A stretch of DNA of 64,000 bases from an uncultured Myxococcales bacterium (GCA_964463485.1 CAYXDO010000049.1:1889-65888), one strand, 5' to 3'. Positions 45,801 to 48,837 are shown, counted from the first letter of the stretch. Program-made: numbers and translations. The notes: generated by a model not told the origin, from the letters alone.

Positions 45801-48784
45801 GCGGGCACGGCGCGTCCGGCAGGCAAATTCAGGGTGTCGTCGACATAAACATAGACGTCGTTCGCAAACACCACGTCTCTAGCCTGGTCCGCTTCGAGCT
45901 CGGCCATGAACGAGTAGCCGCTCGCTGGAGGCAACGGCGCCGAAAAAGTCGCGGGCGTTTCGAATTCGCTCACGTGCGCCCGGATCGTGGTCAGCACGCT
46001 CGCGTCATTGGCGGAGAAGGCCGCCGCGTTCGATCCGAAAAACAAGCTCGTGCGCCGGCCCGACGCATTCGCGCTCGAAACGAGCTTCGGTCCCGGGGCG
46101 GTGAAATCGACGGACACGCCTGGACTCGGCGCGGTCATGACGACGTCCGAGAATACGTAAGTCTCCTGCCAAACCGTGTCGACGCTGCGGTCCACGGAGA
46201 TCAGCCCGGCCTTTTCGAGGCGGACACTCACCAGGCCGCCGCCGTTCACGAGCAGGTCGAAGGACCCGTCGAGGCGAGTCAGCGTCGTGCCGACGTCGGG
46301 CTGCCCGGGCACGCTCACGAGCGCCCCAACGACCGGAGTTTCGTCCGCGAGCAACGCGCGGCCACGCAACAGCAGAGCCCTGCGCGGGTTCACGGCGCCA
46401 GCGAGTGCGACCTGGATCGGGTTCGAGCCTTCGATGAGGAAGCGATTGGCTTCGTATACCGAGGTCGCCACCGTCAGATCGATCGGAGGCGCGACGAGCG
46501 CCGGATCGACCGGCACCCGAACGACCTCGAGGTCGAACGACTGGAGCCCAAAGGAGCCCGCGAGGTCGGTCACGCGAAGCACGACCGGGTGGGTGCCGAC
46601 CTGAGTTTCACTCGCCACGAAAGAAACCGTATCCCCGCTGACCTCTAGCCCGACTGGCCCGAGGTCGACCGAGTAGCTCAGCGGGTCATTCGGATCGAGA
46701 TCTTCGGCCGCGAGCACGTAATCGAGGCGCTGGCCGACGGCGGCGTGGCGGGGCGCGATCGAGACGAAGTGCGGTGGCCGATTGGGCTGAACGACGTGAA
46801 CCGAGAAGGTCTGGAGCGTGGAGGCCCCATGAGTATCGGTCACGCGCAAGACGAACGAGAAGTCACCGGCCGAGTCCGGAGTCCACGACAGAAGGCTGCC
46901 AGCCAGGCTCACTCCGGCGGGCGCGGTCTCGAGCGAGAGGGTCGCGAGGTCTCCGAGGTCCGGGTCGAAGATCGCGACCGAATAGGTCAGAAGCTCGCCC
47001 ACCGAGCCCGAGGTCGGAGGCGCCGAGACGATCTGCGGCTCATCGTTTTGGCCCAGGACCGTGATCGTCGCGCTCGCCTCGTCCTCCAAGACTCCGTCGG
47101 TGACGACGAAGCGCAGCGTCACGATCCCTTCGAAGTCGGCTGTCGTCCTGAGTCTTAGCGACCCATCGAAGCCCGCCTCGGCCGTAGCCACCGCAGGCGC
47201 AATAGATGTAATCCTGGCCAGCAGGAGGACGTCGAGGTCGGCATCCTCCGCACGCTCGAGCAACCCCGGCGGGGGCACGACGAGCTCGGTGTCTTCGAGC
47301 ATCACATACGACTGATCGGAAGCGACCGGCGCGTCGGGCACGGGATCGACGACGACAGTCACGATCGAGGTCGATTCGGCAACCCCGTCGGTGATCGTGG
47401 CTTCGAAGTCGAGGATTCCGTGAAAATTCGGCGGGAGGCTCAGGACGAGCGTGCTTCCGACCTGAGTGACTGCGCCCTGACTCGGCTGAGTGAAGCGAAG
47501 GATCGAGAGAGCGTCCCAGTCGAAGTCATTCTCGAGCGGCGCGATCACGACGTCCCCAGCGTCTTCCAGAACCCGCACCAAGTCCGCATTCGCGCTGGGG
47601 CTCAGGTTCGCTATGTTGGCCATGGTCGTCGCCGTGTCCGACGCGCCGAGCGGGTCGGTCACCAACACCGCGACTGGGTACACGCCGTCGTTGGGGAACG
47701 TATGCGTGGGCGTCGCTCCGGTCGCATCGTCGAAGACACCATCCGCGTCGAGGTCCCACGCAAAGCTCAAAGGCCCGCCTTCGCGATCGGTGGCGCCCAA
47801 CGCCGACAACGTGATCGGTTGGCCTTCATTAGCTGAGTAGGGTCCGCCAGCGTGAGCGATCGGGGGTTGGTTCCAGCCGTCTTCGAACGTGACGGTGGCG
47901 TCTTGACCGAGCTCCACGTCGCGGCCGAAGAGCACTCCACGAAGGGACGCCTTTTGTCTCATTCGGGCCGTTCCATTGGCCACGAGGACAACGGCGCGGA
48001 CCGTTGCCTCTTGGCCGAAGGTCGCAGCCTCAGGGTTCGCGTCGAGATTCCCGCTCGCTCCGTTCTGGCCGTGGACCTCGAGACGAAAGTCCTTTGCCGT
48101 CAAACTTCCCCCCGGAGCGACGCCCAGAAAGCTCTTCGCACCCGGCAACAGCCGACCCGCAATACGGACCTCGACGGGTCCCATCGCCTCGACCCGGGAC
48201 TCCTCTCCGAGCTCGAGCTCCGCGAAGTGAAACGTCCCAGAGTCCAGCCCAGGATCCAGCTCCAGCACCGACCTCTGCCGAAGTCGAATCTCTCCATAGG
48301 ACCCCGGCGAGAGCCTCTCCCGGCCGTTCTGAGACAGCGTAAGGTCTCGAGTCCCGGGTGTGATCGGAGAGAGTAGAGGAAGAGGCGGCAGCGTCGAGGG
48401 GAACGGGTGGACCTGACCGAAGGTCTCGTACCCAGAGGTCGTCAGGGTCGTGGTGTAAACGTCACCGACCGCTGTATGTTGTCGCAGCAAGACCGTCGCC
48501 GCCACCAAGTCATAGGCCGTATCGATGCTCGCGGATTGGCCCAACATCAGCCTGGCGTCGTCACAGAGCAGTTGTTGAGCCGGCCCGCTGCGAATCACCC
48601 CGACGTCTCCGCCTCGAACCGAGGCCCCCTGCCTCAGACACGAGCTGTTTTCAGAAAGGAGCACGAATTCCGATAGGTTCGGGGTGGCGCTCAATCCAGA
48701 GTATGAAACGCTCGATGTAGGGGGGGGGTAGTGACTTATCTTCCCTGTCGCTACAGCCGGCCTCCGCGCCGAGCAGGCAGACAA
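39890..48784 (-). CDS. Giant (2964-aa) teneurin-like surface protein: beta-solenoid-like N-terminus, PKD, Ig/cadherin-like repeats, teneurin FN-plug, NHL propeller with inserted domains, truncated YD repeats, Ig domain, propeptide and M4/M36-like zinc metalloprotease
   Basis: DGSFDLLVNGGG and FVWDGKDAYGR (teneurin-like), GLGGWWLDVHHVYDP, six NHL blades, a few YD-like repeats, HEAAH (40637-40651) with downstream EG (40538). Confidence 0.85.
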   Translation of the reverse strand: MSACSARRPAVATGKISHYPPPTSSVSYSGLSATPNLSEFVLLSENSSCLRQGASVRGGDVGVIRSGPAQQLLCDDARLMLGQSASIDTAYDLVAATVLLRQHTAVGDVYTTTLTTSGYETFGQVHPFPSTLPPLPLLSPITPGTRDLTLSQNGRERLSPGSYGEIRLRQRSVLELDPGLDSGTFHFAELELGEESRVEAMGPVEVRIAGRLLPGAKSFLGVAPGGSLTAKDFRLEVHGQNGASGNLDANPEAATFGQEATVRAVVLVANGTARMRQKASLRGVLFGRDVELGQDATVTFEDGWNQPPIAHAGGPYSANEGQPITLSALGATDREGGPLSFAWDLDADGVFDDATGATPTHTFPNDGVYPVAVLVTDPLGASDTATTMANIANLSPSANADLVRVLEDAGDVVIAPLENDFDWDALSILRFTQPSQGAVTQVGSTLVLSLPPNFHGILDFEATITDGVAESTSIVTVVVDPVPDAPVASDQSYVMLEDTELVVPPPGLLERAEDADLDVLLLARITSIAPAVATAEAGFDGSLRLRTTADFEGIVTLRFVVTDGVLEDEASATITVLGQNDEPQIVSAPPTSGSVGELLTYSVAIFDPDLGDLATLSLETAPAGVSLAGSLLSWTPDSAGDFSFVLRVTDTHGASTLQTFSVHVVQPNRPPHFVSIAPRHAAVGQRLDYVLAAEDLDPNDPLSYSVDLGPVGLEVSGDTVSFVASETQVGTHPVVLRVTDLAGSFGLQSFDLEVVRVPVDPALVAPPIDLTVATSVYEANRFLIEGSNPIQVALAGAVNPRRALLLRGRALLADETPVVGALVSVPGQPDVGTTLTRLDGSFDLLVNGGGLVSVRLEKAGLISVDRSVDTVWQETYVFSDVVMTAPSPGVSVDFTAPGPKLVSSANASGRRTSLFFGSNAAAFSANDASVLTTIRAHVSEFETPATFSAPLPPASGYSFMAELEADQARDVVFANDVYVYVDDTLNLPAGRAVPAGSYRRDLHQWVPAADGRTIRVLGTNGFGLAEVDTDGDGLADEGVGPEERQVLASLYPNPAGVWRVPVGHFSTWAFGFSTGGPADSAPPVKGDPVSPEATEEVIERSIELTNTSFRLVYQSDRVVGFTAPRTLEIPVSGVNLPVSLDKIDAEIFVAGRRITQTFGPAADQKMDFVWDGKDAYGRSLQGGQPVRIRVSYEYPGTAYVQNPTSFLSTFAQALGRSDFVLQTSAPSKVALVQEWRGTIGGWDARSQGLGGWWLDVHHVYDPGARILYEGNGTTRKASALGLYSETVAGTGNPASTGDGGPAVDADIFNPVSVVSAPDGTVYFAEGGSGKVRKIATDGTISTILSPAAGLRTPLLQNGNAERPLSGGLIPGWTQSFGTWSLGTSNPAPFEGAQYFEATDPSTAFLTQEIDLSPYAAAIDGGSAEVALSGTLAARNGSLASASVFFLDEFDTAIDGFALGQVGSLDGWKTESDQRFVPVGARKAVVFLQGESNGGFPPVPSEPVFITVPEVVACENQTYAYNVQAVNSGGINVDELRLNRAPPAADILLQYLPSQQRRGGALMWWGPTTLGKHPIEIEAIDDFDGSVLQTFEIDVVPCPTGPIITSNPVTRATPDHRYYYDVDGIFGNAFDFRLLEKPNYLNIDSTGFLHWFWDPTQDDIGTHRVVVEARMYEDLGIFTTTQTYDLVVDADQPPLCYPHGMWDHPPTNPVGLKRCSVVSLIGYQPTGPEFSFVQAPLGATIDPVTGIIEWDESSALPDVYTFEVAVGDRGTLTFYDSVPWPAGGPVEVMFDAFSLDLVGGGSASSEPAGLAVTQDGSVLVADKGAGLVLAIRPSGNVETIAGGGSVLGDGGPAASASLDSPTGIAVGPDGAIYVADTGHHRVRRIGTDGVISTLAGIGSGGFGGDGGAASQAQLDSPKGVAVDGFGAVYVADTNNHRVRRVGADGNIETFAGSGVEGFAGDGAPAGLAALNAPEGVAVGKDGAIFVADTANDAVRVVGMDAKIETVMGGPTATEDGFLPASRVKVVAPKSVWVAPDNDTSLFVADSGQSAVRRVALPWKGFDYVGALAVDIDARQYLFDALGKHIATKSASTATTQYTIVYGPGGYLSHVVDPSGIRITLERDGSGVLVGFIDSEGHRDTATVDADSYLVETSGVLFHYKEGGVLLRAGEFVFHPNPDSAPLLKVPGIQALGATSIEPCFVPLGIRIVPEFDSGALLALAEAPGYGETYAFVVFGAMLVDETVHADAKILPLSPRSLSSVTPGVLSFQWDATNWVDGTLLVATPGEHHVAIELQLLRLANLPSGTEERTIVAQASVEGIVKVTTPTDACSEWLTVAPSFAGTPDGFVRVNGNATPMRPMARFVTGVPKVIFGELGGRIPGDRIESVREFVRGHPRLFGATGGGVLPDSLSLLSEQDIGGLVRLVVGQSSGGRAVFGRRLVATFDSTDQLVTLIGRTSTELPTGPFEEDVDIGAALAIARNAVVDPTDSVSQIGLERRVLAEDMDGKLVPSYQIAIDTVGSQRYRVVVSAVTGEVLYRRDLSDAETALARVHELDAARIESNTPGDGFAGSRDPVELDTSIRVRTPGPYEFYKLEEGIISETFFFADEGTEGLWVSQDLRLPSTLAGIGIQEAQDATTWYRQVQRFWDAFGWMAGDGAAPLDLVIDEPQPEDDEGAGAIYNAPWILGIRDARIRFFREDDDHGLSAGSFYKGYHEAAHHLDNQLVDIDKSPEVMPATNLVMEHRMPHAVKEGIAHTATMLLDPYPVANDTAQVAVAVRCLLNVLTFNFHCRVGGGLGTFRKPRTHSGLDRPGAMWEPDPWRADWPDCRLDDNPASCHRVGLPPAEPSTFVWSGPDSVIGTQLMLGTVHLDLWETAAQSFHGLHGEGAASAIAAALPRVIMGALLFVDAHPSFHDWMAALGISALLVGGIDPANWADFLSIVREVFGRHGIDEALGSFCGSHEALCQ
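48720..48728 (-). repeat. C9 homopolymer (G9 on +) separating a putative signal peptide from the giant ORF frame
   Basis: Read directly. C8 would fuse the GTG-48818 leader to the giant ORF. Confidence 0.8.

Positions 48785-48837: not shown

Follow-up and report, generated by a model that had tools for sequence, protein, structure and literature searches.

A C9 tract between the leader and body of a giant teneurin-like gene, a candidate on/off switch in an uncultured Myxococcota-like bacterium

When a run of nine C residues puts the signal peptide of a giant protein out of frame with the protein itself, is the run an error, a lesion or a switch? The question arises in a 64,000-nt stretch of DNA from an uncultured Myxococcales bacterium (GCA_964463485.1, contig CAYXDO010000049.1:1889-65888), referred to here as the window. 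On its minus strand, a 2,964-codon open reading frame (ORF) for a teneurin-like protein can be opened at TTG 48784, a lipoprotein-like leader starts at an upstream GTG in a different frame, and the C9 tract lies where the two would have to be joined. A reading made from the sequence alone (the sequence-only reading) had proposed that the gene is caught in the OFF state of a phase-variable switch and had given equal weight to a homopolymer sequencing error.

One gene in two frames

The leader starts at GTG 48818-48816, which is preceded by a Shine-Dalgarno (SD)-like GGGAG at a spacing of just 2 nt. It encodes MNRSQSKISHLLVCLLGAEAGCSDREDKSL ahead of the tract, that is MNRSQSKISHLLVCLLGAEAGC-SDREDKSL with a predicted signal peptide through Cys22, and then takes up the nine C residues (G9 on the plus strand) as codons 31-33. 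With C9 the product of this frame ends after 55 aa. The 2,964-codon ORF lies in the +1 frame relative to the leader, and its product from TTG 48784 (LSACSARRPAVATGKISHY...) has no hydrophobic stretch. Deletion of one C in silico produced a single ORF of 2,975 codons with 0 internal stops, reading ...SLPPPTSSVSYSG..., and by frame computation the full 2,975-aa secreted protein is obtained with C8, C11 or C5 and the 55-aa peptide with C9. The positions that the sequence-only reading had assigned to the GTG and its GGGAG, the leader, the tract and the stop at 48651 were confirmed throughout, as were its statements that C8 or C11 fuses the leader to the giant frame and that TTG 48784 provides no signal peptide. 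The principal features are collected in Table 1.

Table 1. Features of the giant gene and its flanks in window coordinates. E and L005 are paralogs and X1-X4 metagenome runs, described in the text.
Feature	Position	Strand	Evidence or content
Conserved upstream block, promoter- or 5′ untranslated region-like	48819..48940	-	includes TTGACG 48866-48861 and SD-like GGGAG 48825-48821
Signal peptide coding region, GTG to Cys22 (MNRSQSKISHLLVCLLGAEAGC)	48753..48818	-	codon-position differences vs E; homolog signal peptides
Linker SDREDKSL, last codon the rare Leu codon CTA adjoining the tract	48729..48752	-	comparison with E and L005
C9 homopolymer, frameshift point	48720..48728	-	exact-match unitigs and contig from X1-X4; C9 also in L001, L003 and L005
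Out-of-frame leader tail YIERFILWIERHPEPIGIRAPF, ending at TGA 48653-48651	48651..48719	-	same bases in the giant frame encode TSSVSYSGLSATPNLSEF...
Giant teneurin-like body, 2,943 codons after the tract	39890..48719	-	Pfam, PDB match, dN/dS
Downstream 497-aa lipoprotein gene (MRFPRGAMSMRACIGLAVFAAC followed by AGDE...)	38427..39920	-	overlaps the giant gene stop by 31 nt

The frame in which each segment has evolved was read from a comparison of the window gene (A) with a paralog (E, locus L003) in a sister metagenome-assembled genome (MAG; GCA_016208175.1, contig JACQYO010000052.1). E has a homologous upstream block, a GTG leader preceded by GGGTG in place of GGGAG, the C9 tract, and a giant body in the same +1 relation as in A; the protein entry P0001 is E's leader read through in the OFF frame. 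Over the 30 leader codons (48729-48818), A and E differ at 3, 6 and 9 first, second and third codon positions in the GTG frame (7 synonymous and 6 non-synonymous changes, 80% amino-acid identity), as against 6, 9 and 3 in the frame of TTG 48784 (3 synonymous and 12 non-synonymous, 59%). In the 50 codons after the tract the corresponding counts are 8, 2 and 20 in the giant frame (17 synonymous and 9 non-synonymous, 82%), as against 20, 8 and 2 in the continuation of the leader frame (3 synonymous and 23 non-synonymous, 54%, with stops). If counting begins at the hydrophobic region, 7 of the 9 leader codons that differ in the alignment are changed synonymously, and the linker has the same amino acids in E with three synonymous differences in its DNA. 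Three further alleles from the metagenomes (C, D and F, rebuilt from contig differences and loose ends) retain TSS[V/A/I]SYSGL after the tract, again with mostly synonymous changes.

Codon constraint thus follows the GTG frame before the tract and the giant frame after it, which means that translation must enter the giant frame at the tract and not at a downstream start. TTG 48784 was rejected as the true start, as only 3 of 18 differences fall at third codon positions in its frame. Taken together, these comparisons support the leader from GTG 48818 as the true N-terminus of the giant protein, split off by a +1 frameshift at C9, and at the level of coding constraint they show one gene in two frames, in which a predicted Sec-type signal peptide of the lipoprotein family and a teneurin-like body are joined at the tract. 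It is very improbable that there are instead two separate genes, one for a 55-aa secreted peptide and one for a giant ORF without a signal peptide, started internally by coupling or re-initiation near the leader stop (for example at GTG 48664 or TTG 48694) or at TTG 48784. Such an arrangement would draw on the leader stop at 48653-48651, which lies within 10 nt of the in-frame GTG 48664, on a GTG about 5 nt past the leader stop in E, and on the internal starts chosen by gene callers. Giant-frame constraint, however, begins at the first base past the tract, upstream of any such start, and before the tract the TTG frame has only those 3 of 18 differences at third positions. Homologs also have the signal peptide, Cys and linker fused directly to the same domain, and in a third paralog (L005) the leader stops 4 codons past the tract with no adjacent start.

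Upstream of the GTG, the conserved block has about 80% nucleotide identity with L003; its indels are 1, 3 and 9 nt long, and its differences favor no codon position. A strict sigma-70 promoter and terminator scan of this block returned no site. A search of Rfam with 48400-49300 gave no match, and the idea that the leader is the end of a group II intron or a riboswitch was dropped. The leader had no match in genome contigs or metagenome contigs, whether scanned for as DNA (exact or degenerate) or as a peptide pattern, and none in an alignment search, and a word-indexed protein search with the 315-aa fused N-terminus returned only P0001, although that search missed even the window's own protein.

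The tract in assemblies, alleles and paralogs

The locus is present in four groundwater metagenome runs (X1-X4), examined as per-run k-mer assemblies; one run of the study containing this contig is SRR12113406. The runs and MAGs are probably those of He et al. 2021, a link made through the BioProject number PRJNA640378. That paper cites PRJNA640378 and describes Illumina reads assembled with MEGAHIT, each filter separately (PMC7906910). A 234-nt unitig (48517-48750) matches the window exactly across the tract in X1-X3 at depths of 21, 9 and 5, a 432-nt contig (48713-49144) does so in X4 at a depth of 5.7, and the near-identical sister MAG GCA_016208175.1 has the same G9 at the same locus. In X1-X3 a second unitig with the same leader-side flank (identical over at least 30 nt) has one C fewer, at depths of 18.7, 16 and 5. 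Because C8 and C9 are resolved in the same sequence context and in the same data, an assembly error is very unlikely.

The possibility that the true tract is C8 and the gene an ordinary one has in its favor that homopolymers are error-prone and that all of the evidence comes from one study's Illumina libraries. We regard it as extremely unlikely, as four per-run assemblies and two MAGs concur on C9 at three loci, and the C8 allele was recovered from the same runs at similar depth. Other C7-C8 runs in the window leave their ORFs unbroken, and this ruled out general homopolymer misassembly. A sequencing error can thus no longer be held equally possible. At least two sister genes are arranged in this way as well, so the C9 tract has the look of an inbuilt control that turns the gene on and off or sets its dosage, and not of a mistake in sequencing.

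Run X1 contains at least six alleles or loci that have A-like leaders and extend across the tract. These are distinct alleles or loci and not clonal variants, and we infer from depth sums which single differences belong to which allele. Alleles A, E and F carry C9 and are out of frame by +1 (X1 depths 21.2, 20.6 and 25.7). Allele B carries C8 and is in frame, with an A-type leader on a C-type body (18.7). Allele D carries C8 without the following T and is out of frame in the opposite direction (19.9), and allele C has CGCCC in register with the body, with a TGA three codons upstream of the tract (16.5). A, C and F occur at about 1:1:1 across all four runs, and B, D and E are missing from X4; these depth ratios suggest two co-occurring genome types. 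The sequence of allele B (window 48668-48801, X1-X3) combines the window's exact leader with a variant of the body of allele C, which suggests recombination or the exchange of a leader cassette between loci or strains.

The third paralog, L005, lies in the sister MAG on contig JACQYO010000030.1. Its leader is unrelated to that of A but is a canonical lipoprotein leader (MTGKSKFGDCSTQLSCLAIALAWAGC followed by REASDNIL), with a good SD (GGGGAGGG) ahead of an ATG. It nevertheless has the identical junction, CTA-C9-TACATC, and here too a homologous N-terminal domain follows in a frame that is off by +1. The amino-acid identity of L005 is only about 52%. The protein entries P0001 and P0154 (window's own MAG) have the same frames, and the length of P0154 is that of the L005 ORF reading …YYPPPTSVG… through the tract. 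Further into L005 (3184-3247), the ORF of the N-terminal domain is broken at …LHLAGRI, with …HHAYDPMARVIYQGDG… of the NHL/YD region following in another frame, apparently as the result of an internal deletion that took out the part from PKD to FN-plug and shifted the frame. In the sister MAG's copy of the window gene (P0002), 56 residues are missing at window positions of about 43783-43950 (ORF residues 1611-1667) and 28 other residues differ, so the giant gene is polymorphic between near-identical genomes.

The bodies of A and E are intact, with 2,943 and 3,145 codons after the tract, and the ratio of non-synonymous to synonymous divergence (dN/dS) between them is 0.21 at a dS of 0.55. Divergence between A (39890-48718) and L003 (3881-13315) is a mosaic, with dS at 0.98 in codons 1-300 and 0.12 in codons 1200-1500. 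Past about residue 1,930 the two proteins have no similarity, and E ends in an S8 peptidase and FG-GAP-like repeats. The mosaic dS and the unrelated C-termini suggest gene conversion combined with the swapping of C-terminal modules.

Is the tract itself maintained? Runs of nine C or G are not rare by chance at this composition, with about 3 expected in 64 kb at 64% GC (random-order model, calculated by hand) and 2 seen, so the case rests on the position and coding of the tract. A 36-nt block around it has zero differences between A and E, within a region of about 20% divergence, and about 55% of synonymous sites elsewhere have changed. CCC accounts for 20-24% of the Pro codons in the giant genes, and CCC-CCC is used in 0 of 27 other PP or PPP motifs in the two genes. 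No other homopolymer of 7 or more occurs in either giant coding sequence. The Leu codon adjoining the tract, CTA, accounts for 4.5% of Leu codons in the giant gene and is also present in the diverged L005. The identity of the 36-nt block, the avoidance of CCC runs elsewhere and the retention of a rare CTA argue that the C9 run is selectively maintained. The locus has four of the features by which phase-variable loci are known: an uninterrupted run in the 5′ coding region that exceeds the usual minimum of 7-8 units, a product toggled by a change of ±1 unit, tract length that differs among alleles, and a tract kept by selection.

Switching, recoding or decay

The reading that we favor, at a probability of roughly one half, is that the C9 tract is a slipped-strand contingency switch, currently OFF. 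The C run would be a hot spot for slipped-strand mispairing, gaining or losing a C at replication, and each teneurin-like toxin gene would toggle heritably and reversibly between ON (in frame) and OFF, with the majority of the sequenced population OFF at all three loci. Convergence on nine repeats would then be the outcome of mutational bias, as for the polyC/G tracts of Campylobacter jejuni, where most changes at G8 are gains of a unit and most at G11 are losses, with 9 as the modal length (PMC3401435). Given this bias, three loci at C9 would be unsurprising. Phase variation is favored by the common use of such tracts, by allele lengths that differ in both directions and by the modal nine of C. 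jejuni. The closest likenesses are with C. jejuni and with P78 of Mycoplasma fermentans, described as a poly-A tract contingency locus (Theiss and Wise 1997, cited in PMC3711429). Like these, the present system has an uninterrupted run of about 9 units just past the start or signal peptide, at which ±1 unit toggles between full-length and truncated products, a surface-exposed product, several run-bearing loci per genome, and coexisting alleles of different length, and with C. jejuni it has the modal length of nine in common. It differs in its host, an uncultured, high-GC groundwater member of the 'Deltaproteobacteria' (Myxococcota-like) and not a host-adapted pathogen, in its target, a teneurin-like polymorphic protein of about 3,000 aa, and in having all three loci at the same OFF length; reversible switching is here a proposal made from sequence.

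Several points weigh against this. The assembled contigs showed no length heterogeneity within a strain; minor variants are lost in such contigs. At each of three diverged loci, in two MAGs, the tract is exactly C9, the state is OFF by +1 and the flanks are conserved, a pattern that would be equally expected of programmed recoding. L005 has a further break downstream, and simple decay may account for at least one family member. Homopolymer phase variation in Myxococcota was not described in the literature searched. The OFF state proposed by the sequence-only reading has gained support from allele length polymorphism (C8, C8 without T, and CGCCC) and from selective maintenance of the tract, but the exact C9 at three paralogous loci in two MAGs fits recoding equally well, and the OFF state is still something that we infer.

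Programmed recoding, in which C9 is the functional, conserved state and part of expression reaches the giant frame, is rather unlikely in our estimation. RNA polymerase might slip on a run as long as its RNA-DNA hybrid and produce C8 transcripts, or the ribosome might shift by +1 on CCC-CCC-CCC-U as the Pro peptidyl-tRNA re-pairs in a polyproline stall. The 55-aa peptide would then be the main product, and the giant toxin, carrying the trans-frame junction …DKSLPPPTSSVSYSGL…, would be made at a low set level. The more specific proposal, that CUA-CCC-CCC-CCC-UAC is a conserved recoding signal of the Myxococcota teneurin-like toxin family that sets a low constitutive dose, with an exported 55-aa peptide as the default product, we consider unlikely. 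What recoding explains well is the exact C9 with CTA and TACATC flanks at three paralogous loci in two MAGs whose leaders and bodies have diverged (dS 0.55-0.98 for A vs E; about 52% amino-acid identity and an unrelated leader for L005), the retention of the rare codon CTA, the intact ORFs under purifying selection despite a common frameshift, and an OFF state common to every sample. Shifts of +1 on CCC are also known, for example at CCC_UGA in Listeria phages and in pheL (PMC5009743). A, E, F and L005 all keep the shift site, but allele B is plainly in frame at C8 and allele D is shifted oppositely, beyond rescue by a +1 shift.

The site also lacks the usual aids to a ribosomal shift. Its 0-frame A site is UAC, neither a slow codon nor a stop; the distance to the 0-frame stop is not conserved (4, 17 or 23 codons); and there is no SD-like element 3 nt upstream. 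Downstream RNA structure is not conserved (z-scores -3.1, +0.9 and +0.2), and a conserved downstream RNA stimulator was dropped from consideration. With +1 frameshifting on Pro codons (CCC_UGA in Listeria phages PSA, A118 and A500 and E. coli pheL, PMC5009743; prfB), the locus shares the need for +1, a CCC P site with perfect +1 re-pairing and conservation among paralogs. In contrast to those sites, its shift codon is followed by neither a 0-frame stop nor a rare codon, a stimulator of SD-like or structural type was not found, and some of its alleles are in frame or shifted oppositely. With transcriptional realignment (Thermus dnaX A9 and insertion sequence elements; PMC1088944, PMC3711429) it shares a run of 9, the length of the RNA-DNA hybrid, and a frame that loss of one base from the RNA restores. 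Known slippage sites, however, are runs of A or T (PMC3711429), whereas this is a C run in the RNA, a G run in the template. None of the RNA sequencing runs searched contained the locus. Recent inactivation, in which the family is being lost, the C run is merely its most mutable site and the genes are dead pseudogenes without selected switching, strikes us as distinctly unlikely. Of seven alleles, five lose the frame at the tract and a sixth has a nonsense codon and an interrupted tract, and L005 has its second disruption, where the NHL part follows the N-terminal domain in the wrong frame. Decay would not, however, readily leave two 9-kb ORFs stop-free in a 64% GC genome at a dN/dS of 0.21, or keep the run uninterrupted against codon usage while about 55% of the paralogs' other synonymous sites changed, and an in-frame allele coexists with the shifted ones.

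Protein family, neighboring sequences and implications

The domain of about 280 aa that follows the tract has 1,237 relatives in a full HMMER scan and no NCBIfam match. In 12 of 13 inspected relatives in which the domain is N-terminal, a hydrophobic signal peptide with [AGS]C at its end and a linker of 10-30 aa come before it (for example P0022, MMRVATRSIFLLSVCLLGVSC followed by SAPDP…). The PROSITE rule for lipoprotein signals (PS51257) calls for K or R within the first 7 residues, a hydrophobic region free of charged residues, the lipobox [LIVMFWSTAG](2)-[LIVMFYSTAGCQ]-[AGS]-C, and the Cys at 15-35. Applied by hand, it is fully satisfied by the L005 leader (…LAIALAWAGC26) and failed by that of the window, and also by that of E, on account of Glu19 at -3 (…LLG-A-E-A-G-C22), as the sequence-only reading had cautioned in calling the EAGC lipobox atypical. 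An alternative for the window leader would be cleavage by signal peptidase I after AEA and before G (after VEA in E). The comparison with relatives supports a lipoprotein-type leader as one that fits the family.

In order, the body consists of the N-terminal domain, PKD, Big_9/cadherin, He_PIG, TTR, an FN-plug region, NHL and about 900 C-terminal aa without an assigned domain. Across the TTR/FN-plug region and the NHL propeller it matches the solved bacterial teneurin-like proteins (TLPs) 9ifo and 9pt5 in the PDB (E=7e-145). The FN-plug scores 18 bits in Pfam, below the cutoff of 27.8, and the region aligns with 9ifo residues 636-946 (E=8e-57). The NHL beta-propeller is present (Pfam TEN_NHL 99.5 bits, NHL 80.5 bits; 9ifo residues 938-1255 align). 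In the YD/RHS shell, which in TLPs surrounds the polymorphic C-terminal toxin, only the first YD repeats align (9ifo 1247-1353), with no Pfam RHS match. Bacterial TLPs have been described as polymorphic toxins with immunity genes, and those of Myxococcota as predicted Sec/SPII lipoproteins that often occur several times in a genome and have polymorphic toxins at their C-termini; some lack a predicted signal peptide, for which alternative secretion was proposed (PMC13018210). Besides the aligned regions, the window gene has in common with them its N-terminal adhesion domains (PKD, cadherin-like, Ig), its several copies per genome, a C-terminal region of about 1,000 aa that differs wholly between paralogs and, once the frameshift is bridged, a lipoprotein-type leader. 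It differs in that the YD shell is seen by sequence only to the first repeats, no toxin/immunity pair was identified, E has an S8 peptidase at its C-terminus, and the window signal peptide is out of frame. The downstream 497-aa lipoprotein had no family match in Pfam or NCBIfam; by its position, the gene may be an operon partner or an immunity-type gene of the sort reported downstream of TLP toxin genes.

Several other sequences in the window were recorded. A 42-nt core at 48789-48830, comprising the SD-like motif, the GTG and the first ~10 codons, has a word depth of about 280-300 in X1 as against about 21 for single-copy sequence, partly through unitig overlap, and some contigs, for example one of 2,671 nt, match this core only, with unrelated flanks on both sides. 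It may be a short multi-copy element or a 5′ cassette common to more genes. A 550-nt repeat occurs at 49002-49551, at 37612-38161 (98.5% identical) and in part at 34994-35301 (92%), all within 15 kb. It contains the last ~140 codons of a dual Ser/Thr kinase gene (49132-51792, minus strand) and about 130 nt downstream, and one copy lies directly upstream of the giant leader. A 121-nt tandem duplication (34759-35000, 98% identical) lies near the third copy of this kinase tail. The window's only other 9-mer homopolymer (36626-36634, C9 on the minus strand, between TCT and TAT, which resemble the flanks of the giant-gene tract) is intergenic, 5 nt past the stop of a small Cys-rich lipoprotein ORF (36640-36981), and fragmented fn3/DUF4215 ORFs at 35.8-37.5 kb are frameshifted in appearance. 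A C8 run (51748-51755; G8 on the minus strand) lies in frame within the first ~15 codons of the longest kinase ORF (GTG 51792), and a 12-nt-periodic coding repeat rich in Lys and Ala (AKAKAK type) lies at 19812-19946 within a 931-aa ORF (19674-22469).

Homopolymer contingency loci are textbook material for host-adapted pathogens. The kind of switch proposed here is itself known; its setting is new, a Myxococcota-like genome from the environment, in which it would gate a giant teneurin-like family at the junction of signal peptide and mature protein. The literature searched held no description of a homopolymer contingency locus in Myxococcota or for teneurin-like or polymorphic toxins. Public annotations begin 62-79 codons downstream and so omit the signal peptide (P0152, for example, is the window ORF counted from GTG 48598). 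Gene callers truncate these genes, and some TLPs reported without a signal peptide may be artifacts of such an arrangement. If the switch is real, free-living predatory or social bacteria would also use stochastic switching or recoding to ration surface weapons that are costly and dangerous to the cell itself.

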